DNA from: an uncultured virus (IMG/VR IMGVR_UViG_3300007539_000017)
Lineage: Duplodnaviria > Heunggongvirae > Uroviricota > Caudoviricetes
Strand: one strand, 5' to 3'
IMG/VR virus record: IMGVR_UViG_3300007539_000017
DNA length: 20,000 nucleotides
The notes beneath the pieces were generated by a model. It was not told the origin of the DNA, made no database searches, and saw only the letters and a program-made list of their open reading frames with translations. Position 1 is the stretch's first letter. Each line of letters begins with the position of its first letter. This document shows, one piece after another, positions 1 to 17,600 of the stretch. The translations under genes were made by a program, and so were the position numbers.

Positions 1-3000
1 GGAGCATTAGCAAAAAACTACTTCAAACTACTTGAAAAAGTAACTGGTGATACAGAACAACAAATAAAAGATAGAATAGCTGTTCCAGTTGGAGAAGCTA
101 TTAGAGGCATATTTGAAATGGGTGAAATACCTACATTCCAAAATATATTTGATGAATTACTCTTCTCTGAAGATATTGATGGAACTTATTTATCATCTTA
201 CTTTAAAGGTACAAGTAGAGAAATAATTGATGCAATGATTGGAGATGATAATCCATTTAATGTATTCCAAGACTTATATACAGAAGCAATGGCAGATATG
301 GATTTGAACTCATTTGGACTTGCTTCTGCCGATATAGGTACAGGACTCTTTAATGTATTAGATAAATACACTGCATTTACACAAATAAAAGGTGATGAAC
401 TAGCTGCAAGAATAGGACAAGGTAATTTATTCCAAGGATTAAATGAACAACTAATAGCAAATATTGGTGGTTCAGATTTTCTTGAGCATGAATTAAATCA
501 AGTATTTACAAGTTTAGCAGATGCATTCAGAGTAAAAATGCCAGATGCTACTGACACTGAAGTTGGTAAGGCAATATTAGACTTCTTAGTTTTCATGGAA
601 ACATTTAACAATCTTGCTGGTAAGAGTATTTCTGATATTGCAGATACATTAGAAATGCTACCTGAAGACTCTGATGCAATGGGTGCATTGAGAGATATGT
701 TAGAAATTTATTTAGACGAAATGACAACTGCAGGTTATTTAACTGAAAGAGAAGTTTTAGCAGCTGGCGATAGTACAACTAAGATGTTACAGCTTTACAA
801 GAATGCTCAATTAGCAATATCTAATGAAATAACAGACGCTAACAAAAAGATGCAAGACGAATTTGGCATAACAGCCGAAATGTCATTAAGACTTGCAATT
901 AAAGCTAAAGAGGCTTTCAAACAAATAAGAGAAGCTGCTACTGCACTAGGAAAACCATTAGAAGACGCAGAATTAACAGATGTATCATTCGGTAAACTTT
1001 TAAATAATTTACAAGATAACAGAAAAGCTATAGAAGCGTATGAAAAAGATATTGCACAATTAAGAGCAAAAGGATTTGAATTTACAGCAGATAGATTACT
1101 ACAAATGGGTCTAGGTGGTAGAGATATAGCGGCTAGAGCTTTAGAAGACCCAATGGCTGCACAGGCTTTAGAGTTTGAATTAATTAAAACTGCTCCTGCA
1201 ACTGCTTCTGATGTAGGTGTTAAGTCTCCATTAATGGATGATGCCTATATGGACCAAATGAACAACTTGGGTATTCAGATAACAGAAAGCTTTGTAAAAG
1301 GTATAGAAGATGGATTCCCAATTATAAGACAAATGTTTGGAGAAATGGGTGAAGAGGTTGTAGCCGCACTTAGAGAAGCACTTGGATTCGGTTCACCATC
1401 TAAAGTTATGATTCAATTTGGTAACTGGACAAGTGGTGGATTTGCACAAGGTATAAAAGAAGGAATACCAAAAACTGAATTAGCTATGCAGGATATGGCT
1501 AAAAATAGTGCGGAAGCATTTAGAGCAATACTAGGAATTAATTCAAACTCTAAATTATTTACACAATACGGACAAAATGTAGCAAATGGTTTTGTAGATG
1601 GTTTAAGAGGAGCTTTTGGGTCAGCTGGTGGAGTAAATGCAGCATTTGATGACTTTGCAGAATTAATAAAAAGATTCGGTGGAAACGTAGAAGCATTTTC
1701 AGCATTCATAGCCTCTACTTATGGTGAAGGAAATTTCCAAACATTCCTTGAAGCATTTATGGATGGTGTTTCTACTAAAGCACAAAAATACACATCTGAC
1801 CAACAAAAAGCTTTCCAGATGGTAACTCAATTAACAGGAGCTGAAAGAGCTAGAAACTCTGCTTTATTAAATGTAATGCAATCTAAAGCAGCTTACGCGA
1901 AACAATTAAGAGACGAAGCTTCATTACAAGATAGAATTGGAGATACTTTAGAGAGGCTAAATAAATTAGAACAAGAAGGTAAACAAGGTAACGTAACTGT
2001 TAAAGAACGTATTGGAATATTACAAAAACTACTTTCTTTAAGAGAGATGGAAAAGAGAGCTGCTGGTGAATATACTGCAAAAGAAGCTCTCGCGATACAG
2101 GATAAAGAACAAGAGGTTAATACTCTTGCAAGAATGTACGATAAAGGTGTCATAAGTGCATTAGAGTTCCAAGCTGCACAAGAAGAACTTTCTGAAATGA
2201 AAGGTGAATTTAAAACACAAGAAGATAAAGAGTTGTTTTTCTTACAACTAGCTGATGCTCAAACAGAATATGAAGATGCACAAGCTGCTGCTTTAAAAAT
2301 AGACCAAGAGCTTGTATCTACAAGAGAAGAATATTTTGGATTACTAGATGAACAAGAGCAAATGACTCTAAGAGTAAAAACAGCACAAGATAAATATTCA
2401 GCAGCTACTGAAGGTGCAGTAGAAGCTGATTTAGCACTAACATCTGCAATATTATATTTTGAAGAGAATATTGGTCCTCATATAGATACACTTTCTACTT
2501 TAGCTGAATCATATGGAGCTATCACAACAGAGGTAGATGGATTAATTGATGCATTAGAAAAATATAAAGAAGGAAGTATTGATAGCATATTTGGACCTGA
2601 TGGTGCTGAGATAACAAAACCATCTATATATGATGAAAACAAAAATAAAGCTGTCGAAGAAGAATTCAATGAATATGTATCAGATGTTAATACAGCTCAA
2701 CTGGGCGATAAAATGAGTTACCAAGAAGCTATGAATACATTTAAAGGTTCTTTTGAAGAAGCAGGACTATTAGATGAATATCAGAAATTTATATACAATC
2801 CACTTTTATCTCCAATTTTTAAACAAGGAACTGCTCTTAATATGGAATCTAATAGATTAAGAGAAGAAGAGCAATTCATGACTAATGCTGATTTAAAAAA
2901 TATAAAAAATATTCTTGATGTATTTAACAATCAAGGTCTAAACAGAATCTTTAGAGAAGAGTCTGGAACTACAATACTAAAACAATTTATTGAATCATTA

Positions 3001-3774
3001 GGTCTTAACTTAACTAGAAAGACTGATGGTTCTGGATACACCTTCTTTGAGAAAAACTTAAAATCTGTAGAAGATAAATTAGGAATATCACTAGGAAAAT
3101 TTTTAGAAAACTTTGGAGATACTTTTACTGGAATTACAAAACAATCTGCAGACGAGATGTCTTCTTCTGCAAAAAATCAAGCATACATTGAAAAAGTATT
3201 AAGTGGCTCACCAGTACATCAAGAAATGGATATGGGTGTAGAAGTAGCTGAAGATAATGGAACAATATATGTTCCACCAGGTTCTGCTTACCCTGCAGTA
3301 TATATAAATTCAGCTGGTGAAGAAAGAATTGTAACAAATGATGCTGCAAGACAAGCTGCACTTAGAGCTGGATATAGAGATACTGGAAGAAGACCTTCTG
3401 GATATGTTCCTCAAGGAATGATGGGGCTAAGAACAAAAGGTTATAAAATGGGTGGAAGAATTCCAGATATGTCACATATTAAACCTAAAAAATATGCAAT
3501 GGGTGGTAGAACTCAAGACCACATGATGAAGCGAGCTCTTGTTGGAGAATATGGCCCAGAAGAAGTAAGATTTGTTCCAGGTTCAGGTTTCTTAGTAAAA
3601 CCACTTACAACAGGTGGTAGGGGTAATAACACCATAGTTCAAAATTTATCTGTTAATGTTACTGGTATACCAGTAGATAATGCTTCTGCTAGAAAAGCAG
3701 CAATTCAAATCAAAAAAGCATTACAAAGATTAGATAGAGAAGGTAACGCTGGTGGAGGTATAAGGAACGTATAA
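1..3774 (+). CDS. Phage tail tape measure protein, 5'-truncated (frame is open from base 1, so ATG 118 is probably internal)
   Basis: Frame 1 has no stop from base 1 (GALAKNYFKLLEKVTG...) to TAA 3772-3774. Long Ala/Glu/Leu/Gln-rich helical protein. Two TMP-type motifs, LGFGSPSKVMIQFG..GFAQGI (from 1381) and LGINSNSKLFTQYG..GFVDGL (from 1531), plus the C-terminal TMP signature YAMGG...ALVGEYGPEE (about 3493-3564). Lies directly upstream of the tail-tip genes. Confidence 0.9.
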   Translation, partial: GALAKNYFKLLEKVTGDTEQQIKDRIAVPVGEAIRGIFEMGEIPTFQNIFDELLFSEDIDGTYLSSYFKGTSREIIDAMIGDDNPFNVFQDLYTEAMADMDLNSFGLASADIGTGLFNVLDKYTAFTQIKGDELAARIGQGNLFQGLNEQLIANIGGSDFLEHELNQVFTSLADAFRVKMPDATDTEVGKAILDFLVFMETFNNLAGKSISDIADTLEMLPEDSDAMGALRDMLEIYLDEMTTAGYLTEREVLAAGDSTTKMLQLYKNAQLAISNEITDANKKMQDEFGITAEMSLRLAIKAKEAFKQIREAATALGKPLEDAELTDVSFGKLLNNLQDNRKAIEAYEKDIAQLRAKGFEFTADRLLQMGLGGRDIAARALEDPMAAQALEFELIKTAPATASDVGVKSPLMDDAYMDQMNNLGIQITESFVKGIEDGFPIIRQMFGEMGEEVVAALREALGFGSPSKVMIQFGNWTSGGFAQGIKEGIPKTELAMQDMAKNSAEAFRAILGINSNSKLFTQYGQNVANGFVDGLRGAFGSAGGVNAAFDDFAELIKRFGGNVEAFSAFIASTYGEGNFQTFLEAFMDGVSTKAQKYTSDQQKAFQMVTQLTGAERARNSALLNVMQSKAAYAKQLRDEASLQDRIGDTLERLNKLEQEGKQGNVTVKERIGILQKLLSLREMEKRAAGEYTAKEALAIQDKEQEVNTLARMYDKGVISALEFQAAQEELSEMKGEFKTQEDKELFFLQLADAQTEYEDAQAAALKIDQELVSTREEYFGLLDEQEQMTLRVKTAQDKYSAATEGAVEADLALTSAILYFEENIGPHIDTLSTLAESYGAITTEVDGLIDALEKYKEGSIDSIFGPDGAEITKPSIYDENKNKAVEEEFNEYVSDVNTAQLGDKMSYQEAMNTFKGSFEEAGLLDEYQKFIYNPLLSPIFKQGTALNMESNRLREEEQFMTNADLKNIKNILDVFNNQGLNRIFREESGTTILKQFIESLGLNLTRKTDGSGYTFFEKNLKSVEDKLGISLGKFLENFGDTFTGITKQSADEMSSSAKNQAYIEKVLSGSPVHQEMDMGVEVAEDNGTIYVPPGSAYPAVYINSAGEERIVTNDAARQAALRAGYRDTGRRPSGYVPQGMMGLRTKGYKMGGRIPDMSHIKPKKYAMGGRTQDHMMKRALVGEYGPEEVRFVPGSGFLVKPLTTGGRGNNTIVQNLSVNVTGIPVDNASARKAAIQIKKALQRLDREGNAGGGIRNV

Positions 3775-5132
3775 TGCATCAAATACATTTAGGAAGAATT
3801 AGTTTTATATCTCCAGGAACACTACAACTTAGTGCAGGACCTGATGGAAAAAGTTTGTCTATCAGTGGTAAATTTGGTGGTGTTGAACATACTATTGACC
3901 ATATAAAATACTTAAGAGATGAGCTTCAATCAATGTCAACTATGGATGAACATGTCCCTTTTATTTACGATGGTGATACTACATTAAATGGATATGTTAA
4001 AGTAGTTAGTTCTAGTGTGGATATACAAAAATATTTACAAGGTGGAATTAGCTATGATATTAATTTAGAATACATAGGTAAAGTAGGTGATGTACAATTT
4101 GAATCAAGACTTACTGGAGCTTTATTAGAAAACGATTTTATAACTACAGCAACAAATCAACAATTTCATGCTGCACCAGGAAATAACTTTGCTTTTATAC
4201 ATAATTCATTACCTGGAAGAGCATTAAGAGTTGCTAGAGATTTAACAAGCAGTACAGCATCTGATACAACAAATTTATATATAAATCAATCAAGTATATT
4301 GAGAAATAATAACTCTATATATAATTTGGATATTAGTGATTACTACAAAGGATGTTGTCAAATAAGAATGGGAGAACATATGGAAAAATCTTCTCCAGGA
4401 GCTTCTGATACAGTAGTTCAAAGTATCAAATGTGGTAAATACGCTGGAGACTGGTCTGTAGGAGATACATTAGTTCTTGATAATGGAATTATAAAAATGG
4501 TTTTAGGAACAAGTACTGCTACTTCCAGTTTTAATACTTTTATATGGGATGTAAATCAATATGCTACAGAACAAGAATGGGTATTTTCCGAAGGAGACCC
4601 AGCCTCAGCCTCTGACCAACATGGTGAATTATTCTTAGGTTGGCACAGAGTACAAATACTCGTTAATAGACCAGAATTAGTTGTAGTTAGATGTACTACT
4701 TATAAAGATAGTGATACAAGAGGTAAAAGACTTGTGGTAGACTTTTCATTAAGAAGAGGAGCGCATCACATAGGCGTAATAACAAATTACTACACTGCTG
4801 GTACAAAAATAAATATTGCTTTAGAGTCAGCTCCATCAACTGCTCCAGATGTAACAAATATATTAAATGGTTTTATTAAAGATGGTTCTTCTTCTCCAGA
4901 AGATGGAAATTATTGGATTCTAGGTGGGTTAAAATCTTTAGATTCAGATACATCTATAACAGACAGAGGTATGTTGAGAAACAATGCTAATGGTTCTGTT
5001 TTTGGTTTTATGGTTGGATATGAATTAATTGACCCAAATACAAATGCTGCTTTATCTCACAATACTGCTAGCAATGTATACAAACAATATGTTGACAATA
5101 TAAATGAATTTCAAAAAATGGTAAAAGCATAA
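3774..5132 (+). CDS. Minor tail protein, probable distal tail (Dit-like) protein, 452 aa
   Basis: TAATG overlap with the tape measure stop, with AAGGA shortly upstream. Beta-rich composition. The position between tape measure and hub is the canonical Dit slot in siphoviruses. Function is inferred from synteny only. Confidence 0.55.
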   Translation: MHQIHLGRISFISPGTLQLSAGPDGKSLSISGKFGGVEHTIDHIKYLRDELQSMSTMDEHVPFIYDGDTTLNGYVKVVSSSVDIQKYLQGGISYDINLEYIGKVGDVQFESRLTGALLENDFITTATNQQFHAAPGNNFAFIHNSLPGRALRVARDLTSSTASDTTNLYINQSSILRNNNSIYNLDISDYYKGCCQIRMGEHMEKSSPGASDTVVQSIKCGKYAGDWSVGDTLVLDNGIIKMVLGTSTATSSFNTFIWDVNQYATEQEWVFSEGDPASASDQHGELFLGWHRVQILVNRPELVVVRCTTYKDSDTRGKRLVVDFSLRRGAHHIGVITNYYTAGTKINIALESAPSTAPDVTNILNGFIKDGSSSPEDGNYWILGGLKSLDSDTSITDRGMLRNNANGSVFGFMVGYELIDPNTNAALSHNTASNVYKQYVDNINEFQKMVKA

Positions 5133-5824
5133 TGCCTATTACAGAAAAATTAATGTCACAAGGTCAAGTAATAGTAACTTTAGATTTATCTTTGGTGCCA
5201 AATTATATTTTGAATTCTATACAGCCATGGGACCAAATTGTAATAACAGACTCAGAAATGGAAGCAGCAGAGTGGATAGATAGTGTAATGTTACCTTCAT
5301 CAGAATATGTAGGTGTAATACAGTCTTTATCTATTGAGCCAGAAACAGCAGAAATTGAAGGAGTTGGTATATCTGTTTACCTTGGAGATTCTGACAATAA
5401 AGGATTAGGTGTGAGTGAAATACAAAACGATGGTTCATCTTCTAGAGTCTATGAAGATAATACATTAGAATACGTAATTAATAATAATAATGGACAACCT
5501 TATGGATTGCTTAGAAATAATGACAGCGGAAGATTAAGAAGTGTTTGGCCTGGAACTATAACTGAAAAAACTATTCAAGATACCGACTTACTTTTAAATT
5601 TTGAAGGCACAGATGGTGATACAGATTATGACGATGAGACCGATTTAGAACATAACTTAGAATTTTACGACACAGCAAAAATATCAGACGACCAAGCAAA
5701 ATTTGGTAATACAAGTTTATATTTAGATGGTGATGGTTATGTATTAGTTGACTATCACCCAGGATTTCATCCTGCAAAAAATGACTTTACAATAGAGTGG
5801 TGGGAGTACAGGTTACAACCGTGA
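5132..5824 (+). CDS. N-terminal part of a tail hub/baseplate (Tal-like) protein ending in the first half of a LamG/concanavalin-A-like domain, 230 aa
   Basis: TAATG overlap with the upstream gene. Hub-like N-terminus (YVGVIQSL...EIEGVGISVYLG). From 5582 it reads DLLLNFEG...AKISDDQAKFGNTSLYLDGDGY...DFTIEWW, the usual start of phage LamG-type domains, then stops at TGA TAG. Confidence 0.7.
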   Translation: MPITEKLMSQGQVIVTLDLSLVPNYILNSIQPWDQIVITDSEMEAAEWIDSVMLPSSEYVGVIQSLSIEPETAEIEGVGISVYLGDSDNKGLGVSEIQNDGSSSRVYEDNTLEYVINNNNGQPYGLLRNNDSGRLRSVWPGTITEKTIQDTDLLLNFEGTDGDTDYDDETDLEHNLEFYDTAKISDDQAKFGNTSLYLDGDGYVLVDYHPGFHPAKNDFTIEWWEYRLQP

Positions 5825-5828
5825 TAGT

Positions 5829-8800
5829 ATGCCTCAATTTGATTTAGAAAACGCTGAAGTAAGTTCAAACTTTGTTGATAGATTAATACTTAATGAAGCT
5901 ATCGTTCCTTTTGTATATTGGGATTTAAAAAATGCAGGTCAAACTGTTCTTAAAACTGGAGCAGCTCCTGACCCAAATATAAGTAAGTTTCAACAAAGTG
6001 GTACTGGAATGACTGGTGCTGGATATTGGTCCAAATGCCCTCTTGACCCAAATAGACATGTTATGGACTTATTAAAAAACACTACTCCTACTTTTGGTAT
6101 AGGAAATACATTAGATGCTTTTATAAAACCAGGTACTACGTCACCATGGCCTAAGAATGCTGAGGGTCTTAAGTTTAGTAATGATAACCATAGATTAAAT
6201 CTTTATGACGTTTTACATGACGAAGATAAAGGTATAGCTGTAATAATAAATGGAACTTGGTACAACATATACTTTCCAATAGAACATGATTTATCATACG
6301 CTACTAATAGTACAGGCGGAGGCTGGATAGATACTAACCAAAGTGGTACAGATGATGATGGAGTTGGTAACACAGGTGTAGTACAAAACAATGAACCAAT
6401 ACCTATAAGATATACTGGAGATGGAAGTTCAGTAACCAGAAGTGATGGGATAACTATAATAAAAGCTAGACCATCTTATGCTCTTTTAAAACAATTAGTA
6501 GCAACTCCTGTAACAGTCAAGTATGCTGTTGGAGTTAAAGAAGCTTTTTACAGATGGGATAAAACAGGTTCTGTATGGGTTAAAGAATTAGATTCCAATA
6601 ATAACACCATATTAGAAGCTGATTGTTTTCCTTATGACACAACAATAGCTCAAGAACATTTTGATATGATGGTTGATATAGCTTGGCATAAAGGAACTGG
6701 AGGTTTTAAACATTCATGGTTTGTACAAGTTTATAAATATGATGGTACAGAAGATACGTTAAGAGATGGTAGTCAGATAACTTCTGCTTCTGATTTGGAG
6801 GCATACAAGGATGCTGCTTATGCAATGGGATTTTTTGGTGTAGTTTATGACAAAAATACAAAAAAATATTATTTTAAACAATGGGCTGTAGATAGATACA
6901 GAAAACATATTCAAACTTTACTAAGAGGAAGTCATTTTAGTGGAAACTTATCTACAATGACTCCTCAGTTTGGAGTTGACCCAAATCCAATTGCTGATTC
7001 TAGGAACTGGTATCAAGGACATGACATAAATAAAAACTGGTTTTACGCACCTGATGCTTGGTATGGTGGATATTTTACTGCCCCAGGTGGTGTAAATGGC
7101 TGGAGTGTAAGAGGTGGTCAAGCAGCACAAGGTGGTGTTAGTAACCCATCTAATATTGCAGACTCGGCAATTAACCCAAATACTATTACTGAATCAGCAG
7201 ATAATTCACCAATAACTATAGAAAATTTAATAGAAAATTTAGAAACCTTACCATTACCTTCTACAGACTTTTGGCAAGGTAAAAACTCTACAGGAGCAAA
7301 TGTCGACTATTCAGATTATTATTCAGGAGCTCGTTCTATATTTGATTCAGATGCTGGAACTGTTGATTATTGGAGTACTGACCCAAACTTTCAAGCTTAT
7401 TATTCTAAATATTGGCAAGATGGTTCATCATGGTTTCATGGAACTACTGCTTATTCAAAACCTAGAGCTAAAACTAAATGGGGTGCTGTATTAGCATCTA
7501 CGCAACATAATTCACTTCCTTCTTTTATGATTGGACTTAATGAAAATGGTCAAGGAACATCTAAAGTCTATATGAGGTCAGTAACGTCAACTAGTAAGGT
7601 TTTAAATGGTGTAGCTACTGATGATTGCTTTGACATAGCTAATGGAAAATCTTTAGGAACAATTGACTATGGTCAATGGAATCACTTTGCTATTACAAGA
7701 GAAGGAAACAACTTTTACACATTTAAAAATGGAACTATGGTAGATAGTTGGAGAAGCGACAAAACAATTAAAATACCACAACCTGATACAAAATTATGGT
7801 TATCTACTGGATTAAATTTATCAATTGGTTTATCACAAAATGCAGACCACTTTTATGGATATTTAGATGGTTTAAGAATTACTAAAGGAACTGCTAAACA
7901 TCAAACAGATACTAGCACAGGAATAGTAAGCTACAGTGTTCCAACTAGCGCACCAGAAACAGAAGATGCACAAACTAGTTATAGTGGAACTCATTATTTG
8001 GAAACAGTGTTAACTGCTTTAAATAGAATTGCAACACAACTAGATATTGAGTGGAAAGTAAGAATAGGTACAACAGCAGATGATACAGATAGGCCAATAC
8101 CTTCAGGAACTAACGTTGGAAAAGTTTTATTAGATATTGGACCTAGAACAAGTCTTTTTGTTGGTCATGGTGTAAATGAATATGCAGAAACTATTGTTGT
8201 TAGGGGAACTTCTGGTGAAGACCCAACAATAACAGGTATAGACCCATCAAGTATTAAATCATCTTTTGATGCTAGAGAATATGTTTCTACAGTAGAGTAT
8301 CTTGAAACAATAGGTGGACAAAACTTTGATACATTAGATGTTACCGATGATGCAATACCTTACCGCGACATAAACGGCAATTTACTTGAAAGAGTTGTTT
8401 ATGCTTCAGAACCTCAACATCCACATATATCTAAAGAAGAAAGAGCTAGAGCTTTCTTAAAAGAACTTAAGAGAGTTAAAAGGTCAATAGATTTAGATTT
8501 GGATTATTACGATATTCAAGGTGATTTTGAAGTTGGAGATAATATATTTATTTATGACCCTGAGCTAGGTTTTGAAGATAATGAAGCTAAGAGAATTGAA
8601 GATGGAAGAACAGCTTTATTCGAAGTTGCTTTTCAAGGCGAATATATAAATCCAGAAAAAATAAGAGTTACCTCAATTACACATCCTATTAAATCAGGTA
8701 TGGGTATTTATTTAAGAAGACTAAGAACCCCATCTTCTCAAGAAGTAGAATATATAGATTTGACACCATATGTACAATTTGAATCTGGTGGTGCAAGGCT

Positions 8801-10166
8801 TGAAGTTGGAGACCTTCCACTTAAATTAGGTGATGACTTAAGATTTTCTCCTACAGTAACTGGTATTACAGCAGGTTCTAAAGTAACATTTCCTGGAAAA
8901 GTTAGAGACCCAGATAATACATCTACTAATGGTATTAATTTGACATCTGGATTTATTCAAGATGCTTTAGGTGCTCAACAAGCAATAATAAAAATAGAAT
9001 GGGTTGTACCTTTAAATGAGGACGGCTCAATAATACAAAATGGTTCTCATTACAATATTAGATATAGAAAAACAGGAACTACTGACCCTTATACCGAAAG
9101 CGCAGTAACTTGGGGTCAAGAAACTTATACAATAGAAGGATTAGCTTTAGATACACAGTATGAAGTAGGGGTTCAACCAGTAAACTCTAATGGAGCAACA
9201 GGAGATTACGTAACTGATTACATAACAACTGCCGTAGATACAGTAGCTCCACTTAAACCAGACCAAGCCGTAACAATAGCTCCTGGTGCAACACGTGTGC
9301 AAATAATACACAATTTAGGAGCAGCAGAAGATATAAATAGAAATCCTGTTTCTAATGTTATTGATTTTACACTCCAAAATGATATTGACCATTTAAATGT
9401 TTATTACTCACAATCATCAGGTTTTTCTATATCTGGTATGACACCTAAAGGACAAATACCTGTAACTGCTTCACATTTAAGAAATGAAATACCTGCTATA
9501 GGTGAAGTACAAGTAGCTAATGGTGAAAATTATTACTGGAGATTTACTGTAGTTGACAAAGCTGGAAATGAGTCAGACCCTTCTGAAGAACAAGAAGCTA
9601 GAGGTAATTTAGTAGAAACACAAAATATAGGAACCGCTGCTATTACTGAAGCTAAGATTGCTAATTTAGCAGTTACTACTGCAAAGATTGTAGATGCTGC
9701 TATAACTAATGCTAAGATTGATGACACTATTCAATCTGATAATTACCAGCAAGGTGTACAAGGTTGGATAATACAAAAACAAAATGCTAATTATCCAAAT
9801 GGATATGTGGAGTTTTCTGATGGTGTTTTTAGAGGTAGCCTTACAGCCGAAACTGGTTCTATTGGTGGATGGGATATATCTGAAGATACTTTATCTGCTG
9901 ATTACACTACAGGCGGTACAACTTATTACCTAACTCTTGATGCTACTGCTGGTACAATAGAGGGTAACTATACTGCTGGTAGTTCAGGTTGGAAAATTGC
10001 TGCTGATGGTTCTGTAGAGTTTAATGATGGAAACTTCAGAGGAGATATAACTGGTGCTACTGGTACTTTTAGTGGAGGAATAAATATTGGAAATGGAACA
10101 TTTGTTGTAAATTCTCAAGGTGGTGTAACCTTAAGTGCAATAACTGGATTCCATATAACACCTTAA
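5829..10166 (+). CDS. Large minor tail/central fibre protein, 1445 aa: unknown N-terminal domain, LamG C-terminal half, hub remainder, two FN3-like domains and gpJ-like fibre repeats
   Basis: GQWNHFAITREGNNFYTFKNG...FYGYLDGLRITKG (about 7656-7900) is the LamG C-terminal signature. Hub-like segment at about 7977-8830 (ending DFEVGDNIFIYDP...IRVTSI). FN3 patterns IEW..YNIRYRK..YTIEGLALDTQYEVGVQPVN and YYWRFTVVDKAGNES (about 8900-9600). (AITxAKI)n repeat at about 9627-9720 and IQSDNY..GW...EF.DG.FRG repeats resemble the C-terminal region of lambda gpJ-type proteins. Confidence 0.85.
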   Translation: MPQFDLENAEVSSNFVDRLILNEAIVPFVYWDLKNAGQTVLKTGAAPDPNISKFQQSGTGMTGAGYWSKCPLDPNRHVMDLLKNTTPTFGIGNTLDAFIKPGTTSPWPKNAEGLKFSNDNHRLNLYDVLHDEDKGIAVIINGTWYNIYFPIEHDLSYATNSTGGGWIDTNQSGTDDDGVGNTGVVQNNEPIPIRYTGDGSSVTRSDGITIIKARPSYALLKQLVATPVTVKYAVGVKEAFYRWDKTGSVWVKELDSNNNTILEADCFPYDTTIAQEHFDMMVDIAWHKGTGGFKHSWFVQVYKYDGTEDTLRDGSQITSASDLEAYKDAAYAMGFFGVVYDKNTKKYYFKQWAVDRYRKHIQTLLRGSHFSGNLSTMTPQFGVDPNPIADSRNWYQGHDINKNWFYAPDAWYGGYFTAPGGVNGWSVRGGQAAQGGVSNPSNIADSAINPNTITESADNSPITIENLIENLETLPLPSTDFWQGKNSTGANVDYSDYYSGARSIFDSDAGTVDYWSTDPNFQAYYSKYWQDGSSWFHGTTAYSKPRAKTKWGAVLASTQHNSLPSFMIGLNENGQGTSKVYMRSVTSTSKVLNGVATDDCFDIANGKSLGTIDYGQWNHFAITREGNNFYTFKNGTMVDSWRSDKTIKIPQPDTKLWLSTGLNLSIGLSQNADHFYGYLDGLRITKGTAKHQTDTSTGIVSYSVPTSAPETEDAQTSYSGTHYLETVLTALNRIATQLDIEWKVRIGTTADDTDRPIPSGTNVGKVLLDIGPRTSLFVGHGVNEYAETIVVRGTSGEDPTITGIDPSSIKSSFDAREYVSTVEYLETIGGQNFDTLDVTDDAIPYRDINGNLLERVVYASEPQHPHISKEERARAFLKELKRVKRSIDLDLDYYDIQGDFEVGDNIFIYDPELGFEDNEAKRIEDGRTALFEVAFQGEYINPEKIRVTSITHPIKSGMGIYLRRLRTPSSQEVEYIDLTPYVQFESGGARLEVGDLPLKLGDDLRFSPTVTGITAGSKVTFPGKVRDPDNTSTNGINLTSGFIQDALGAQQAIIKIEWVVPLNEDGSIIQNGSHYNIRYRKTGTTDPYTESAVTWGQETYTIEGLALDTQYEVGVQPVNSNGATGDYVTDYITTAVDTVAPLKPDQAVTIAPGATRVQIIHNLGAAEDINRNPVSNVIDFTLQNDIDHLNVYYSQSSGFSISGMTPKGQIPVTASHLRNEIPAIGEVQVANGENYYWRFTVVDKAGNESDPSEEQEARGNLVETQNIGTAAITEAKIANLAVTTAKIVDAAITNAKIDDTIQSDNYQQGVQGWIIQKQNANYPNGYVEFSDGVFRGSLTAETGSIGGWDISEDTLSADYTTGGTTYYLTLDATAGTIEGNYTAGSSGWKIAADGSVEFNDGNFRGDITGATGTFSGGINIGNGTFVVNSQGGVTLSAITGFHITP

Positions 10167-10170
10167 AATT

Positions 10171-12033
10171 ATGGCTGATGGATTTCACATAGATGGTAGC
10201 GGAAACCTTTGGATAGGTTCTGCTTCTAATACATTTACAACTTCTGCACCATTCTATGTAGAAACTGATGGAACTATACATGCAGAGCAAGGAGATATTG
10301 GTGGACTTGATATTGGTGCAACTTATATACAATCTTCTAATTTTAGTGCTAATAATCAAGTAGGATACAGACTTCAATCAGATGGTGACGCAGTATTTTA
10401 TGGTTCATTAATTGCTAATTCATTATCTGCTTCTGGTGCAAACATATCAGGAAATATAACTGCTACTGATGGAACTATTGGTGGAACACAAATAAATTCA
10501 AGCAACATTGAGTCAACTACTTTTGACGCTAATACAGGTTATCAAATAGGGGCTAACTCTGCAACATTTCATGATGTAACTATTACAGGTACAATATCTG
10601 GTGCAAACATAGATGGAACTATAGATGGAGAAATAAGAACTGCTTCTGGAAATACTTATATTGAATTATCTAGTGATAGCGGAAGTACAATGTCGTATGT
10701 TAAAGGTGGTGGAACATTTGGAACATTACAAGATAACGCTGGAAATTTTGCTTTACAAAGCGACATTTACGCAAGTGGTCTTACATTAAGCTCTGCTGTT
10801 GGACCAGTAAGATTAGTCCCTGCCGCAGGTTTATATATTGGTGGAGATGTAGGAACTTCAAGTAAAGTATTAATAGGAGGTACTTCTCCTGGTTGGGGCA
10901 ACGTTCCTGCTAACGCAGGTGTAACATCAGTAACCGCAGTTGGTAGTATTGTAGCAACTGGTAATTCTAACACTGGTGCTGTTATCATAACTGATAACCA
11001 TGAAAGTCATAATAATTTAGCAAACTCTGGCCACAACCATAATGCTACTAATACAAATAATCTTGCAGGCCTTGATGATAGTCATAATCATACTTCTACA
11101 AATGCAGCAGGTTCTTTTACAGGAATAGATTCTGCAAATGTTTTAGTTAATAGTACTACAAACAATAATGCTGGAGTTTATCACTCTCATACAACTGGTA
11201 ACGTAACTTCTGTTCAAGTTCAAGGTAACATGTTAAGTCAAGGAAATAGTAATTCTGCAATATTGATTTATGATAACCATGGTACTGACCATCATTCATC
11301 TTCTGACCATACAGGAAATAACAATAATAACTTAGCAACAGTTGGATATGTAAACTCAAGAGGTTTTACAAGTAATAATGGTAACTCTAACTTAGGTACT
11401 CATGGTAATGAAAGTCATAATAATTTAGGTTTTGGAACTGGTAACTCAAATATAAGTTCTGCAGATGTAAACAGTCTTATAGATAATAATGTGAAAGTAA
11501 ATACTGGATGGTCCCATGCTGGGTCAGTACATAATAATGGTAATGGTAATGGTAATATGAATCAGACTAATCATTTTAATGGTAACATTTCTGTAACTAC
11601 ACATTATCACCCAAACCCTATTATTCACGATTCAAGATTATTAAATATTAATGCAAATACTGTTCCTGGTATAAATTTTGTAAATAGATTAAATCCAGTA
11701 CAAACAAACTTTATAGGAAATGTAGAAACAAGGCTTACTAGTAAAGAAAATTTATCTGGATATATTACTGAACACTTAACAGCTACAGCTTTTACATTAA
11801 CAGCACAAGATGTGAAACAAGCTCTGACTGATGATGGATATACAGATAGTTTTGGTATGGTTTTAGATAATGTAGATTATTACACAGAGGAACATAGTTC
11901 AGATTTAGAAGAAGGAGAAACAGTAAAAGGTTTTTCTCAAGAACATATGGTTCCTATTTTAGTACAAGCAATAAAAGAATTATCTGCTAAGATAGAAACA
12001 TTAGAAGATAGAATAACAACCTTGGAGGGTTAA
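10171..12033 (+). CDS. Tail fibre/spike protein with His/Asn-rich segment and C-terminal peptidase-S74-like intramolecular chaperone domain, 620 aa
   Basis: N-terminal Gly-rich fibre repeats (APFYV..DG, GxIGG, IQSSNF..GY). His/Asn-rich middle. C-terminus DSRL.NI..GINFVNRLNPV...AQDV...VPILVQAIKELSAKIETLEDRI matches the S74 chaperone layout with a terminal coiled coil. Confidence 0.85.
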   Translation: MADGFHIDGSGNLWIGSASNTFTTSAPFYVETDGTIHAEQGDIGGLDIGATYIQSSNFSANNQVGYRLQSDGDAVFYGSLIANSLSASGANISGNITATDGTIGGTQINSSNIESTTFDANTGYQIGANSATFHDVTITGTISGANIDGTIDGEIRTASGNTYIELSSDSGSTMSYVKGGGTFGTLQDNAGNFALQSDIYASGLTLSSAVGPVRLVPAAGLYIGGDVGTSSKVLIGGTSPGWGNVPANAGVTSVTAVGSIVATGNSNTGAVIITDNHESHNNLANSGHNHNATNTNNLAGLDDSHNHTSTNAAGSFTGIDSANVLVNSTTNNNAGVYHSHTTGNVTSVQVQGNMLSQGNSNSAILIYDNHGTDHHSSSDHTGNNNNNLATVGYVNSRGFTSNNGNSNLGTHGNESHNNLGFGTGNSNISSADVNSLIDNNVKVNTGWSHAGSVHNNGNGNGNMNQTNHFNGNISVTTHYHPNPIIHDSRLLNINANTVPGINFVNRLNPVQTNFIGNVETRLTSKENLSGYITEHLTATAFTLTAQDVKQALTDDGYTDSFGMVLDNVDYYTEEHSSDLEEGETVKGFSQEHMVPILVQAIKELSAKIETLEDRITTLEG

Positions 12034-12474: not shown

Positions 12475-13233
12475 ATGAAATTTAAACTAGGAGGCAATCA
12501 ATATATAGAGTTTGCTACTGATGTAGCTGGACTTGAAGATATTGCTAGAGTAAAACCATCTAAATTCTTTATACCTCAATGGTTTAAAGATATGAAAGAA
12601 ACTATCAACACTCCTGCTTCACCTGATGGTAGTGTTCCTGGAAGATTTGAAAGAAGTGGAGATACAGCAAAAAAATGGACAAGTGGAACTGTAAAAAGAT
12701 GTCCAGCTATTGTAGATTTAATTAGCGAAGGTTTTATAATACCAATGTGGTCTGATTTTCTTTTACAAAATGATGGCACAATATTGGAATGGGATAATAA
12801 AAATTTTCCATATGGTATTGAGTTTCATAATACAGCTCAAATATATAACTGGCCATTAAAGAAAAATGACTTTCCAGAAGGTGTTAAATTTACAAATCCT
12901 TGGAGAATATATACGCCACCAGGTTATTCAGTTATGTTTACACAACCTACATACCAATTTGAAAAAAGATTTACAGTACTTCCTGGAATTGTAGAAACTG
13001 ATTCATATCATCATATAAACTTTCCAACTATAATTCATACAAAAAAAGATATAATAATTGAAAGAGGTACCCCATTTATACAAGTTATTCCTTTTAAAAG
13101 AGATGATTGGAAATTTCAAGTAGGACAAATGACAGAAAAGCAAAAGTATCAAGACATAACACATAAAACACATTTAAGTTCAAAATTTAAGAATGCATAC
13201 CGTTCAATTACCTCTAGTTTCAAAAACTCATAG
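12475..13233 (+). CDS. Conserved phage protein with probable dUTPase-like beta fold (DUF6065-like), 252 aa
   Basis: Motifs IPQWFK, TVKRCPAIVD..EGFIIPMWSD, KFTNPWRIYTPPGYSVMF, LPGIVETDSY and IIERGTPFIQVIPFKR. The last two resemble degenerate trimeric dUTPase motifs III and IV. The family assignment is from memory of such motifs. Confidence 0.65.
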   Translation: MKFKLGGNQYIEFATDVAGLEDIARVKPSKFFIPQWFKDMKETINTPASPDGSVPGRFERSGDTAKKWTSGTVKRCPAIVDLISEGFIIPMWSDFLLQNDGTILEWDNKNFPYGIEFHNTAQIYNWPLKKNDFPEGVKFTNPWRIYTPPGYSVMFTQPTYQFEKRFTVLPGIVETDSYHHINFPTIIHTKKDIIIERGTPFIQVIPFKRDDWKFQVGQMTEKQKYQDITHKTHLSSKFKNAYRSITSSFKNS

Positions 13234-13537: not shown

Positions 13538-14692
13538 ATGGCAGAAGTAACCCATAGCTCTACGAGCTATATGAAAGGTTCAGCAGATGCTGACCATATA
13601 TTAGACGGAAGTTACGGATATACAACAAGTCAAGCAGTAGTTAATGTTTCTGATTCGGAACATAATTTATACATAGATGGACAAACATTAGTTTCTGACG
13701 GTACATTTGTTATTGGTACTACAGATAGTAAATCTATAATATTTGCAACAGATTCTACCGTTGCTGCACACATAAATACAGATGGAGCTTTTGATTTAAA
13801 ATCAGGTAAGTTTTTATTAGATGGAACAACAGGAAGCCCTAATCAAGTTTTAAAGTCTGATGGTTATGGAAATTTAAGCTGGGCAGATTTACCAACACAA
13901 CAAAATGCTTTTGGAGGAATAATTGTATCTGGACAAGATACAGTAACATCAAGTGGTTTAGCAGATAACTTAACATTGATTGCTGGCTCAGGAATTACAC
14001 TTTCTACTAATAGTACTAACAAGACAGTAACAATAACATCTTCAGGTAGTTCTGGAGCTGCTAATGCATTTAGTACAATTGCTGTTGGTGGTTCAAGTAT
14101 TAATGCAGACTCAAGTTCTGATACATTAACATTTGTAGCTGGTAATAATATAACAATTGACCCAAACACAAGCTCGGATACAATAACAATATCAGCTAGT
14201 ACTTCAGGAGATGTTAATCAAAATGCTTTTACGAGTGTTGCATCTACAGGTCAAAGTACAATTACTGCAAGTCAAACTCAGGATACATTAACAATAGATT
14301 CTCAAACAAATTCCTTAATGGATAGTAGATATAGAACAGATAGAGACAAAGTTACTGTTATTACAGATACTGAAACAAATAAGGTTGTAGTAAAAAACAA
14401 TATACCCAAAACTTTTTCAATGGCTAGTAAAGTACCATTAGTAAGCCAAACTGGCGAAAATGCTGGAGTTCCTTTAAGAAATAAATTTCTTAACGTTACA
14501 ACCAGTGGTTTAAGTATATCTGGTGGCGGCACAAGCATAGGAGTTAGTACTAGGTCTTTACAAGTATTAAATAGCTCTGGTTCAACTGTAGACGTTTTAA
14601 TGCCAGCAAAATCAGATAACAGTACACTAGAATTAACAATAGAGGATTCCTCAGGGAGTACACATACGATAGATATGGATGTAGCTGAATAA
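13538..14692 (+). CDS. Ser/Thr/Gly-rich virion structural (tail fibre-associated) protein with three 53-aa repeats, 384 aa
   Basis: AGAGGA upstream. NQVLKSDGYGNLSW fibre motif. NAF..I...G...I.A....DTLT..AG..IT repeats start at 13904, 14063 and 14222. Confidence 0.8.
   Translation: MAEVTHSSTSYMKGSADADHILDGSYGYTTSQAVVNVSDSEHNLYIDGQTLVSDGTFVIGTTDSKSIIFATDSTVAAHINTDGAFDLKSGKFLLDGTTGSPNQVLKSDGYGNLSWADLPTQQNAFGGIIVSGQDTVTSSGLADNLTLIAGSGITLSTNSTNKTVTITSSGSSGAANAFSTIAVGGSSINADSSSDTLTFVAGNNITIDPNTSSDTITISASTSGDVNQNAFTSVASTGQSTITASQTQDTLTIDSQTNSLMDSRYRTDRDKVTVITDTETNKVVVKNNIPKTFSMASKVPLVSQTGENAGVPLRNKFLNVTTSGLSISGGGTSIGVSTRSLQVLNSSGSTVDVLMPAKSDNSTLELTIEDSSGSTHTIDMDVAE
13901..14310 (+). repeat. Intragenic tandem repeat, 159-nt (53-aa) period, about 2.5 copies
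   Basis: AATGC(T/A)TTT (NAF) occurs at 13904, 14063 and 14222, each followed by D(N/T)LT(L/F/I). Confidence 0.8.
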
Positions 14693-17600
14693 TGTCAGAA
14701 AAAACGCCAGTAAGAGTAAATTACGATGGAGACGGTAATGCCGTTGGCTTTGCGGAATTTCAAGCTGATGAATTTATAGGAGTAGACGATGGTGGTACAG
14801 GTGCTACTACAGCATCTGGTGCTAGAGCTGCTTTAGGTATAGAAATTGGCGTTGATATACAAGCGTATGATACCGATTTAGCAGCAATTGCAGGACTTTC
14901 TCATAGTGACGGAAACTTTATAGTATCCAATGGTTCAGCATGGGTAGTAGAAAGTGGCTCAACTGCTAGAACATCTTTAGGACTTGGTTCATCGGACAGT
15001 CCAACATTTAATAATTTAACAGTATCTAATGATTTAACAGTAACTGGAGATTTAACAGTTCAAGGTGATACTGTAACAGTTAATGCATCAACAGTAACAA
15101 CTGAAGATGTATTAATGAAGTTAGCTGATAATAATACTTCTGATACAGTTGACATTGGTTGGTATGGAGAATATGTAGAATCTTCAACTACAAAATATTT
15201 AGGTTTTACTTGGGACGCTTCACAAGATAAGTTTATTTTATGGACTGGTAATCAAAGTGAACCAAACACATTAGTAGATACAGGAGCAACAGGCCATGCA
15301 ACAGCTACATTAATTGCAAATATTGAAGGAAACGTTACTGGAAATGTTACAGGTACAGTATCTGATGTAAGTAATCACGATACTGACGATATAGCTGAAG
15401 GCTCAACTAATTTATATTACACAACTGCTCGTTGGGACACAAAAATGGCAGCTGCCGATACTGATGATTTATCAGAAGGTTCTACTAATTTATACTACAC
15501 CGACACAAGGGTTGGAACTTACCTGACAACAAACAATTATGCTACAGAAAGCTATGTTCAATCACAAGTAGCAACTGCTAACGAATTATCAGAGATGACA
15601 GATGTTACTTTAACATCTACTACTACTGGAGATTTTATACAATATAACGGTTCTGCTTGGGTAAATATAGCACCTGACACCGATGATATAGCTGAAGGAA
15701 CAAACTTATATTATACAGATGCCAGATGGGATACCAAGATGGCAGCAGCAGATACTGATGATTTATCTGAAGGTAGCACAAATCTTTACTATACCGACGC
15801 AAGAGTAGGAAGTTACTTAACAACTAATAGTTATGCTACAGAATCTTATGTAGATAGTGCAGTAGCTTCTGAAAATGAATTAAGTGAGATGAACGATGTT
15901 ACTCTTACTAACCCTGCTAATGGTGACTTTTTAAGATACAACGGAACTGTTTGGATTAATGACCCTGTTAATTTATCTACAGATACTATTGGTGATTATG
16001 TACAAAGCATTACAGGCGGAACTGGAATTTCGATTGATGTTACTTCTGGTGAAGGACAAACACCTACATTAGCAATAGACTTTACAGAATTTGATACAGA
16101 TGATGTAGTAGAGGGAACAACAAACTTATTCTTTACTACAGCTAGAGTTGATAATCATTTAAGTGGTGGAACAGGAATTAGCTACACTACTGGTGCTATA
16201 GCAATAGATTTTAGTGAGTTTGATACTGGAAGTATTACTGAAGGAAGCAATCTTTATTATACAAGTGCTAGAGCAGATGCTCGAATTGCAGCAGCTAGTA
16301 TTGGAGATTTATCTGATGTAACTCTTACTTCTACTGCTACTGGTGACATACTTAGATATAATGGTTCAGCTTTTGTAAATGAACCACTTAACTTAGGTAC
16401 AGATACTGAAGGTGACTATGTAGCAAGTCTTGTAGCAGGAACAGGTGTAACACTTTCTAACAATAGTGGTGAGACATCTACACCAACAATAAGTATTGGA
16501 CAGGCTGTAGAAACAACTTCTAATGTACAGTTTGCAGATGTAACTATTGATGGAGATTTAACATCAGGTGGTCAAGTTCTTATAGGAACAAACACTATTA
16601 CATTAAACTATGATGTTCAAAGTGTAGATAATACATATAATGTTGAAATAGAATTTTGGAGAGGTAATTTACAGCACAAACATTTCTTCTGGGATGAAAC
16701 AAACGATAGATTTAGCATTAACAGTGATGACTTAGCAGCAGGAACTGTAATAGCAGACCTTACAGGAAATGTAACTGGTAACGTCACTGGTAACGTAACA
16801 GGTACAGTTTCTAGTATATCAAATCATGACACAGATGACTTAACAGAAGGTACAACTAATTTATATTTTACAAACGCAAGAGTAGATACAGAGATAGATA
16901 ATTATGTCAGTGGAGGAACTGGTGTAACAGTTACTTCTGGTGAGATAAGTATAGGTCAAGACGTTTCTACAACTTCATCTGTTACATTTGCAGATGTCAC
17001 TGCTGGATTAACTGGAGATGTTACAGGTAACGTAACAGGTAATGTTACAGGTAACGTTACAGGAACAGTATCTTCGTTAAGTAATCACGATACTGATGAT
17101 TTAGTAGAAGGTTCTAATCTTTATTTTACAAATACAAGAGCTCGCGGTGCTGTTTCTGCAAATGATACAGGTGGAGACGGTAGCTTTAGTTACGACTCTG
17201 CTACAGGAGTATTTACATACACAGGTCCTTCATCTGCTGAAGTAAGAGCTCACTTTACAGCAGGTACAGGTGTAGATATAACTACAGGACAAATATCTAT
17301 TGGACAAGCAGTAGAAACAACAAGTGATGTAGATTTTGCAACTGTTACAACTACTGGAGATGTAACTGTAGGTGGAGATTTAACTGTATCAGGTACAACT
17401 ACAACTGTTAACACTGAAACAATAAATCTTGCTGATAACATTATTACACTCAATTCAAACGCTACAGGTTCTGCTAGTGCTAATGCTGGTATAGAGATAG
17501 AACGAGGCGATGACGCTAACAAGACTTTATTATGGAATGAAACCTCAGATAAATGGACAGTAGGTTCTGAAACATTCGTAGCCTCTACATTTGAAGGTGA

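Follow-up and report, generated by a model that had tools for sequence, protein, structure and literature searches.

How does a phage build a tail tip whose hub-fibre polypeptide is laid out in three consecutive genes? The question is raised by 20,000 nucleotides of DNA (the window) from an uncultured virus of the Caudoviricetes (IMGVR_UViG_3300007539_000017), in which, all on the plus strand, ORF A (5132..5824, 230 aa), ORF B (5829..10166, 1445 aa) and ORF C (10171..12033, 620 aa) are separated by 4 nt each. An earlier note had read the two junctions either as serial +1 frameshift sites or as boundaries of split subunits that complement each other in trans. Its ORF coordinates and junction sequences, CAA CCG TGA TAGT ATG at J1 and ACA CCT TAA AATT ATG at J2, hold, and both downstream ORFs lie in the +1 frame, which is open from the Pro codon to the ATG. 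We favor the second reading, with a probability of about 0.78: a single hub-LamG-FN3-fibre gene was split into three separately initiated genes, whose products would reassemble non-covalently in the tail tip of the virion. The recoding story is replaced by a documented case of tail-tip evolution.

Organization of the Tail-Tip Genes

The window opens with the 3' part of the tape measure protein gene (1..3774; 2737 aa in the genome ORF map, with a start that precedes the window; PHROG 5493, E 7e-16). It is followed by a 452-aa gene (3774..5132) with no match in Pfam or PHROG, assigned to the distal-tail-protein position from gene order and found at the same place in relatives. ORF A comprises the N-terminal part of the hub (residues 1-147) and the N-terminal half of a LamG domain (148-227, ending DFTIEWWEYR). 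Downstream of J1 (5819..5831, CCG TGA TAGT ATG), the first domain of ORF B is a predicted GH24 (T4-lysozyme-like) muramidase carrying inserted subdomains (residues 1-376, 5829..6956), and a variable linker comes next (377-540, 6957..7448; pLDDT <50 for 402-563, length differing among relatives). The C-terminal LamG half follows (541-700, 7449..7928; PF13385 at 541-686, E 6e-7), aligning from residue 227 of the unsplit L046, then the remaining putative baseplate hub and FN3 domains (716-1260, 7974..9608; PF00041), aligning from about residue 146 of LamG-less unsplit relatives, and finally tail-tip fibre repeats (1261-1445, 9609..10166; PF09327 and PHROG 31, central tail fibre J), which end GFHITP. 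Downstream of J2 (10161..10173, CCT TAA AATT ATG), ORF C encodes the distal fibre; its product starts MADGFHID, and an S74-like chaperone region occupies the C-terminus from about residue 480.

Like a siphophage hub/Tal, this array lies two genes after the tape measure gene and runs from hub through FN3 domains to a beta-rich fibre, in the TMP-Dit-Tal order described for siphophages (PMC10194240), Dit being recognized by position only. Family matches of the hub are weak (PHROG 196, E 0.005, in 1 of 14; Atlas score 0.91 to clusters Sipho_Gp37 and DUF5047; no match in Pfam or PDB), and ORF A together with the middle of ORF B is a putative, weakly assigned baseplate hub. A model of ORF A alone was poor (pLDDT 53) with no clear match, maybe reflecting a half-fold or a shallow alignment. 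Two WhiB genes in the genome point to a host that is probably actinobacterial.

Fused and Split Forms Among Relatives

Are the cuts real? Long near-identical contigs of runs X2, X6 and X9 (X2 possibly being the source of this DNA) cross J1 without gaps, as do contigs of X2, X9, X3, X4, X10 and X16 at J2; short unrelated contigs in X9 and X19 carry indels at 5814-5819. Among the 20 runs covered, none with this sequence is an RNA run. J1 is repeated in L001, L009 and L010, J2 in L001 and L010, and the same cut points are found in relatives whose hub identity is as low as about 45%. That assembly or sequencing indels broke a single ORF, which the earlier note had wanted excluded, has no positive evidence in its favor, even if three of the contig sources may be this sample or one near it, and given gap-free contigs from several runs over each junction and the shared cut points its probability is negligible.

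The relatives show all four combinations of fused and split states. Single chains of 1381-1553 aa occur in L048 (1381 aa), P0065 (1508 aa) and L236, L239-241, L243-245 and L249 (1384-1553 aa), A is separate from a fused BC in L030, L036 and L037, and AB is fused with C separate in L046, L047, L049-51, L053-55, L057, L059 and L060. This argues, at the level of sequence, that the three ORFs of the window are true gene fissions, and with all states in one family the steps from a one-chain hub-fibre to a multi-protein tip, as in T5 and T4, become readable from relatives. J1-split loci form one clade (FastTree support 1.000, hub-core tree leaving out 9 of 83 loci without full hub core), and the J2 state changes at least five times on a 51-sequence hub tree. 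Since intact-LamG relatives are not adjacent to the split clade in the hub trees, it is the existence of whole LamG domains elsewhere that supports the direction from intact to split. Before tallying, L004, L005, L020, L021, L090-L097 (LamG-only matches), L019 (fragment) and L006 and L007 (duplicates) were left out; counts over the remaining relatives are not independent because of shared ancestry. A word search for longer forms of residues 1-145 of ORF A found none among 435 candidates, which, as fused forms were found otherwise, reflects a limit of sensitivity. In the 1.84-billion search multi-LamG proteins took up much of the listing, which ran to the best 150 matches.

The Junctions as Candidate Frameshift Sites

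Could the junctions nevertheless be recoded? As in SPP1 gp17.1/gp17.1*, a Pro codon precedes the stop of a tail gene and the next ORF is in +1 (PMC6316719). In the SPP1 case as described there, CCC slips to CCU in CCCUAA and re-pairs; in the window the sites read CCG-T and CCT-T, without CCC-U for re-pairing, an ATG of its own starts the next ORF, and neither frame relation, shift site nor spacer is conserved in homologs. Over 24 dereplicated relatives per junction the spacers vary between -1 and 8 nt, and each of the three frames occurs. Such variation is an outcome that the earlier note had itself named as speaking against frameshifting. J1 gaps are 4 (10), -1 (5), 6 (4), 1 (3) and 8 nt (2), with frames +1 (13), +2 (7) and 0 (4) and Pro as last upstream residue in 13; J2 gaps are 1 (7), 4 (6), 3 (5), -1 (5) and 0 nt (1), with Gly (16), Pro (7) or Ile (1) as last residue. 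The commonest frame is +1 (13/24 at each junction), open in all of these, and Pro-stop with an open +1 frame is found at 11/24 J1 and 7/24 J2 junctions. Such openness, pointed out earlier for both cuts, is the default after C-C-N-stop: the frame can be closed only by the last three spacer bases, about 8% by chance, and stays open in about 92%. Nor does Pro-stop mark fusable junctions, because the blocked junction 12470/12475 is also Pro-stop (CCA TAA ATAA ATG). The closest counter-examples come from L012 and L002/L013: L012 (ORF A 79% identical) reads TTG TGA TGATAT ATG, in frame 0 with a double stop, as also found in L028, L033 and L040, and in L002/L013 CCC TAG is followed by 8 nt, making +1 the wrong frame for a next ORF in +2. 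For an RNA stimulator J1 gave no structure signal (z -0.45, +0.94), and synonymous change around it is not lowered; one of the four stretches folded, downstream of J2, reached z -2.4 (4/200 shuffles), and the last 15 codons of ORF B have pS 0.17-0.25 vs 0.29-0.42 for the fibre, a comparison over 15 codons only. Frameshifting, readthrough and bypass as candidates were rejected on the variation of spacer and frame; for bypass, the matched take-off/landing codon (Pro...ATG-Pro at J1, GGA...GGA at J2) is, by eye, absent in L012, L022 and L035.

How is translation of ORFs B and C then initiated? The view that neither ATG has a convincing SD fits J2, which is SD-poor like several other late genes, and fails at J1, where GTGAT (5821-5825), which spans the last base of CCG, the stop codon and the T after it, agrees with the SD consensus over its 3' portion (aligned spacing 7), with a duplex energy of only -5.4 kcal/mol. 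An SD-like match of 4-5 nt is present at 24/24 J1 junctions, and GTGAT at 15/24, irrespective of the last codon (CCG, GCG or TTG). CCG accounts for 6 of 414 Pro codons in the late genes, and its appearance at J1 is explained by the overlap of the SD-like GTGAT with the stop. The short spacers would likely bring about translational coupling and matched protein amounts.

Serial programmed +1 frameshifts at Pro-stop, giving nested isoforms of up to about 2300 aa, would be consistent with the two open frames of the window, with CCG TGA plus open +1 recurring on distant branches, with CCT-stop and 4 nt shared by the six closest J2 junctions and with the fold downstream of J2. They are very improbable given junctions that each show every frame and five lengths of spacer, double stops in frame 0, sole CCC-stop cases that need another frame, shifts from CCG to CGT and CCT to CTT that lack SPP1-like re-pairing, a G-TGA-T also kept with Ala and Leu codons, and the lack of a structure signal at J1. 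Quite improbable too are separate genes with a minor leaky +1 or readthrough product in the window's subclade: +1 is never blocked where it occurs, and natural J2 fusions imply that a joined chain is viable, but openness is what chance predicts, and no A-lysozyme-B single chain is found among 83 loci or the best 150 library matches. J1 and J2 are thus likely no frameshift sites, and split subunits complementing in trans are the better supported reading.

A Predicted Lysozyme Domain Between Two LamG Halves

ORF A aligns to residues 1-227 of the unsplit L046, L048 and P0065, and A 1-227 and B 546 onward are collinear with L046 1-227 and 227 onward; PF13385 (Laminin_G_3) is intact at 3-140/151 in P0065 and L048. 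All 40 aligned ORF A homologs end within 2-6 residues of an invariant WWEYR. Both cuts had been placed inside continuous units, which is correct for LamG and the fibre repeat array, except that the LamG halves are not adjacent but have 540 ORF B residues between them. Ratios of dN/dS (0.03-0.21 for LamG halves and hub, 0.07-0.15 for the C-terminal LamG half, 0.16-0.44 for the faster-evolving lysozyme region) indicate purifying selection on all pieces.

What was placed between the halves? The model of the ORF B N-terminus aligns to the FAHEc1 endolysin (7m5i_A) over 160/160 residues (VIA-align Z 11.5, rmsd 2.5), a score to be read with the caveat that Z below about 13 may be unspecific for helical proteins; the top five rows are all GH24 muramidases, aligned over the whole chain, and the whole-domain match extends to SpmX muramidase 6h9d and P22 lysozyme 2anv. 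Foldseek gave a probability of 0.99 (E 0.027; 0.03-0.07 across matches), PDB profile matches are weak (E 0.11-0.33), and PF00959 was found in 7 of 11 proteins scanned, above the curated cut-off in L035 and L037, and separately in P0197. The window's own domain has no Pfam or PHROG match, the whole genome no PF00959 match, and GenBank phages no match for lysozyme or hub. Residues 1-376 of ORF B are accordingly a predicted GH24 lysozyme-fold domain. By motif, its triad is E23 (5895-5897), D32 (5922-5924) and T88 (6090-6092, assigned across an insertion), plus Y30, with the E-x6-Y-x-D spacing of T4 lysozyme E11/Y18/D20 and a T-x-G-x-G hairpin (bioRxiv 10.1101/418723). Unlike GH24 lysozymes, it has about 210 extra residues in inserted subdomains (55 between D32 and T88 vs 5 in T4), is fused to a tail protein and looks inactive in one clade: the triad is kept in 14/24 relatives, lost entirely in 9/24 (L027-L045 clade) and partial in L034. 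A WD-40 match in P0199 proved spurious. The domain behind J1 had escaped the earlier note.

Split J1 and lysozyme co-occur without exception. The lysozyme-type N-terminus is present in 39/39 J1-split loci, 0/14 intact-LamG and 0/28 LamG-less loci (0/42 unsplit). J1 may stem from capture of a lysozyme with its own start or from in-frame insertion then fission; a search for a free-standing donor returned family fragments only. In the literature covered, which includes few subscription papers, no description of a lysozyme set into a split LamG hub was found.

A Possible Fibre Joint

In every case J2 interrupts one and the same fibre-repeat loop. ORF B ends His-Ile/Leu (His1442, 10152-10154, in the window) in 24/24 J2-split relatives vs 0/25 covalent, internal copies of that strand. 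In a DNA pattern scan not requiring His, 53 of 85 matches were dropped by a length and motif filter and 25 distinct junctions left; the terminal His is present in 19/19 tail-type junctions, mostly from the same contigs as the 24, and the other 6 of 25 are non-tail genes without it. The first strand of ORF C has His in 20/24 and Asn instead in 4/24. From sequence, this suggests a joint dedicated to attaching an exchangeable fibre end to end, and, if it holds, a small defined interface for fibre exchange. Like the P2 gpV apex, where HxH motifs from three chains surround Fe (bioRxiv 10.1101/2023.02.25.529910), a conserved His ends a trimeric beta-structure; unlike gpV, HxH is absent, with one His per B end and usually one in C's first strand, so that a putative metal site would lie between two proteins. 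The terminal His had likewise gone unremarked.

Residues 345-620 of ORF C are 73% identical to the end of the single-chain P0065. Peptidase_S74 is present in ORF C of 3 of 4 relatives, PF13884 matches in L022, L035, L046 and L048, and Atlas features (0.90) also indicate the S74-like region; the window's own ORF C has no Pfam match and reads HDSRLL where relatives read SDERLK.

How the Pieces May Work Together

We tentatively propose, at less than even odds, that an active lysozyme is grafted onto the hub through halves of the lectin-type LamG domain that act as a split-protein clasp, and that a His-capped, possibly metal-bridged joint evolved separately and made a fibre loop into a plug by which receptor fibres are swapped; if true, both would be natural, portable protein connectors. 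Under the favored reading of gene fission, capture of a lysozyme gene, start codon included, into the LamG loop would have taken place in one ancestor, with fusion to the downstream half only. A and B would pair through split LamG and split hub, and each hub subunit would carry a muramidase hanging by its C-terminus, predicted to be active in this lineage and to cut the host wall. The B trimer would end in three His, which may cap the trimer and dock the C trimer end to end, possibly with a metal ion held jointly with the first-strand His of C, and C would serve as exchangeable receptor-binding module. Alternatively, the genes are separate and the hub reassembles, with LamG halves, lysozyme and terminal His as tolerated relics without such roles. 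Triad loss despite retention of the domain (9-10 of 24 relatives), the faster evolution of the lysozyme region, LamG-less relatives and a P2 gpV His cage reported as dispensable in the laboratory (bioRxiv 10.1101/2023.02.25.529910) would agree with relics, which are unlikely in view of LamG halves as constrained as the hub, the WWEYR invariant in 40/40, three catalytic positions kept or lost together and a His fixed at chain ends only.

Relation to Known Tail Tips

Taken singly, each element has precedents: hubs of several proteins, tail lysozymes and genes in pieces. The T5 tip consists of pb3, pb4 and pb5 (PMC10038345), Sf11 and chi have a hub of two proteins, BH1P and BH2P (PMC12724387), and siphophage central fibres can be separate trimers joined non-covalently. 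Unlike these systems as described, the first cut in the more weakly assigned hub of the window falls inside an inserted LamG, followed by a GH24 domain, the second inside a fibre repeat and not between FN3 domains, and fused and split forms coexist in one family. T4 gp5 also has a T4-lysozyme fold in a central tail-tip protein whose pieces stay together after cleavage, and gp5.4 (PAAR) docks on the end of its trimeric beta-helix (PMC4576200). However, gp5 belongs to a contractile tail and comes from a single gene whose product is cleaved by proteolysis, whereas in the window the cut is at gene level, the enzyme N-terminal and tethered via half a LamG, and the docked partner a long fibre. In phage Aeh1 an insertion fragments the essential gene for NrdA, the proteins of which reassemble without splicing; the intruder there is a free-standing mobile endonuclease (PMC3045599), whereas here an enzyme domain is fused to the second piece and apparently used. 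Neither Pfam nor PHROG recognizes the lysozyme of this genome, so virion muramidases of this sort are likely annotated less often than they occur, and its putatively active and inactive-looking versions in sister clades offer a ready test of the need of aquatic actinophages for a tail lysin.

Probable separate genes at the hub-fibre locus

In the window the tape measure gene is followed by a 452-aa gene and by ORF A (5132–5824, 230 aa; putative hub N-terminus and N-terminal half of a LamG domain), ORF B (5829–10166, 1445 aa; lysozyme-like domain, linker, C-terminal LamG half, putative hub remainder, FN3 and fibre repeats) and ORF C (10171–12033, 620 aa; distal fibre). The sequences at the A/B junction (J1, CCG TGA TAGT ATG) and the B/C junction (J2, CCT TAA AATT ATG) are as the earlier note gave them, and a check showed that they are not assembly errors. 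The explanation that we favor, at a probability of roughly 0.78, is that the three ORFs are separate genes, with a lysozyme insertion at J1 and a His-ended joint at J2; these two features are the real content of an observation that was mostly right.

Scans of viral and metagenome contigs yielded 83 usable loci, window included, of which 39 are split at J1, 14 have an intact LamG domain, 28 are without LamG and 2 are truncated; the 74 loci with a full hub core gave 42 representatives at 97%. All four fused/split combinations occur among the relatives, including single chains with intact LamG (L048, P0065 and eight further loci of 1384–1553 aa), fused AB with separate C (11 loci) and separate A with fused BC (L030, L036, L037), which argues for the genuinely split subunits that had been considered as one option. 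In alignments ORF A matches residues 1–227 of the unsplit proteins, and B picks up at their residue 227 from its own residue 546. All 40 aligned A homologs stop 2–6 residues after an invariant WWEYR, and 39 of them are 229–233 aa long. As dN/dS against three relatives is 0.03–0.21 in either LamG half and in the hub, neither LamG half is decaying.

Could the ORFs nevertheless be joined by two serial +1 frameshifts at Pro-stop, the other option considered? Pro-stop with a +1 frame is not constant among the relatives. At J1 (24 junctions: 22 split representatives, L012 and L034) the gap is 4 nt in 10, −1 in 5, 6 in 4, 1 in 3 and 8 in 2, the next frame is +1 in 13, +2 in 7 and 0 in 4, and the last residue is Pro in 13. 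At J2 (n = 24) the gap is 1 in 7, 4 in 6, 3 in 5, −1 in 5 and 0 in 1, the frame +1 in 13, 0 in 6 and +2 in 5, and the last residue Gly in 16 and Pro in 7. The +1 frame is indeed open in all 13 +1 junctions of J1 and all 13 of J2; however, after C-C-N-stop only the last three spacer bases can close it, with a chance of about 8%, so its openness carries no weight. Nor is Pro-stop distinctive, since it also occurs at the 12470 junction, which had been contrasted as unfusable and is blocked. The SPP1 shift is described as requiring re-pairing of CCCUAA on CCU (PMC6316719), and the junctions do not conform to such a CCC-stop frameshift site; the classical CCC stop is present at J1 of L002 and L013, yet the next ORF there is in +2. 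In L012, whose A is 79% identical, J1 reads TTG TGA TGATAT ATG. In L008, near-identical to the window, His replaces the final Pro of B (CAT for CCT at J2), so this Pro is dispensable. In that same L008 assembly a 384-aa gene (10058–11210) is broken, which may be an assembly error. Given the variable gaps and frames, L012 and the CCC stops of L002 and L013, a programmed +1 shift cannot, judged from the junction sequences, be the mechanism of the family, and A, B and C are very probably separate genes.

Contrary to the impression that J1 is devoid of a convincing SD, an SD-like GTGAT is found there at an aligned spacing of 7, as matched to the general SD consensus. GTGAT occurs at 15 of the 24 J1 junctions, with CCG, GCG or TTG as last codon; GGAGG, GGAG, GGTG(A) or TGAT takes its place at the remaining nine. 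CCG is rare (it makes up 6 of the 414 Pro codons of the late genes) and is kept at J1 because G-TGA-T is kept. Genes that overlap or are separated by very few nucleotides can be translated by termination-reinitiation, and such arrangements are enriched among the genes for subunits of complexes (PMC10666635). The tip proposed here resembles the T5 central tip, built of separate trimers (PMC10038345), the putative split hub the known two-protein hubs (PMC12724387), and the fragmented gene the genes-in-pieces NrdA of Aeh1 (PMC3045599). Searches for the hub family gave a PHROG 196 match (E 0.005) in 1 of 14 sequences and an Atlas value of 0.91 to Sipho_Gp37 and DUF5047 clusters, and found nothing in Pfam or the PDB.

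A predicted lysozyme domain behind J1

B starts with 385–545 extra residues in 39/39 J1-split loci, which form one clade on the hub tree, versus 0/42 other loci. Phage-lysozyme motifs are visible in the alignment of B N-termini; PF00959 matched 7 of 11 proteins scanned, two above the cut-off and the window's own protein not among them, and the three sequences matched in a profile search of the PDB are all lysozymes (E 0.11–0.33). An AlphaFold2 model of B residues 1–700 (24-sequence input; mean pLDDT 61, mostly >60 in residues 1–400) led in Foldseek to GH24 enzymes (probability 0.99, E 0.027), and VIA-align of residues 3–371 to 7m5i_A (Z 11.5, rmsd 2.5, 160/160), followed by 9kbs, 6h9d, 8b2s and 2anv. 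T4-type enzymes are reported to use E11, D20 and T26, with Y18 conserved (bioRxiv 10.1101/418723); B of the window has E23, Y30 and D32 with T4-type spacing and T88 within TFGIGNT. The E/D/T positions are kept in 14 of 24 sequences, all three are gone in nine of one clade and L034 retains only D, and this joint loss supports the triad assignment. Both fold and triad of GH24 are thus found, on a predicted model, and the B N-terminus most probably has this fold, reminiscent of the T4 gp5 tail lysozyme (PMC4576200). That the domain is active is predicted with somewhat better than even odds. In L027, L028, L031, L033, L039, L040, L041, L044 and L045 the domain is kept, yet I/V stands in place of the catalytic E, T/S in place of D and V in place of T; in this clade it is possibly a wall-binding pseudo-enzyme.

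How did the split arise? A lysozyme gene with its own start codon may have been captured into a LamG loop, the simplest history since the fold begins at B's first residues. Alternatively, the lysozyme may have been inserted in frame into LamG, with fission afterwards. Searches for free-standing relatives of B's domain found no donor lysozyme. Phages with intact LamG are not adjacent to the split clade on the hub tree, which means that LamG has repeatedly been lost or exchanged; the tree is not used to order these events. Our literature search found no report of a lysozyme within a split LamG hub.

A proposed His-ended joint at J2

Fused relatives read like IDIG-GSDSTS-FHVD in the J2 region; in split relatives B stops past the first strand of that region and C begins just ahead of F(H/N)xD. 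The chain-end strand has H-I/L in 24/24, regardless of the preceding repeat number; each of the 25 internal copies found has N, D, T or S at that position. With this residue left free, a DNA pattern scan found 19 tail-type junctions, all with His, mostly on contigs seen before and including L155, a LamG-less phage. Across J2-split relatives the His position is fixed and the trailing residues are variable; in some, the terminal His-Ile is followed by short Pro-ended tails (IIPAP, IGGTP, ITP; L018 15116–15136, J2 of L031). On a tree of 51 sequences the state of J2 changes five times or more. The first strand of C has His in 20/24, and C carries a putative C-terminal chaperone that is absent from B. 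These patterns moderately favor a dedicated joint, in which the three His of B would cap the B trimer and dock C end to end; a metal, perhaps shared between the His of B and of C, is a tentative addition, less likely than not. Precedents are the His cages of P2 gpV (bioRxiv 10.1101/2023.02.25.529910) and the end-on docking of gp5.4 onto the gp5 beta-helix in T4 (PMC4576200).

Variability of ORF C

The first 240 residues of C have a dN/dS of 0.57–0.72 (against two close relatives), likely from exchange and not drift. The last 276 residues are 73% identical to the end of the distant P0065, indicating recent module exchange. A His/Asn-rich stretch (10990–11620; HESHNN, HNHN, HSH, HHSSSDH, HYH) looks like metal-binding fibre tips. 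In the S74-like chaperone region (11599–12030, C residues ~477–620), where L035 and L046 have SDERLK, the window, L011 and L015 have HDSRLL. If Ser and Lys of SDERLK are the S74 self-cleavage pair, the chaperone would stay attached in C of the window.

Genome setting

The source contig is a phage contig of 70,165 bp with 35% GC, of which the window forms the final 20 kb; half or more of the sampled words occur in each of 20 public runs labeled freshwater, aquatic, salt marsh or marine. It carries two WhiB genes (contig positions 833–1021 and 25736–25924), which, as WhiB is commonly carried by actinophages (PMC8612146), suggests an actinobacterial host. No PF00959 endolysin was found in the contig. 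A repeat-rich fibre-like ORF (window 14692–20000, at least 1769 aa) with TDDLSEGSTNLYYT repeats and two YYCTAHSGM motifs continues past the contig end and had no match in Pfam. The tail module contains, as in many relatives, a 252-aa DUF6065/dUTPase-like gene (window 12475–13233; PHROG 7084, E 6e-74), and an unusually long ORF of 1670 aa lies among the head-tail joining genes (contig positions 38423–43435).
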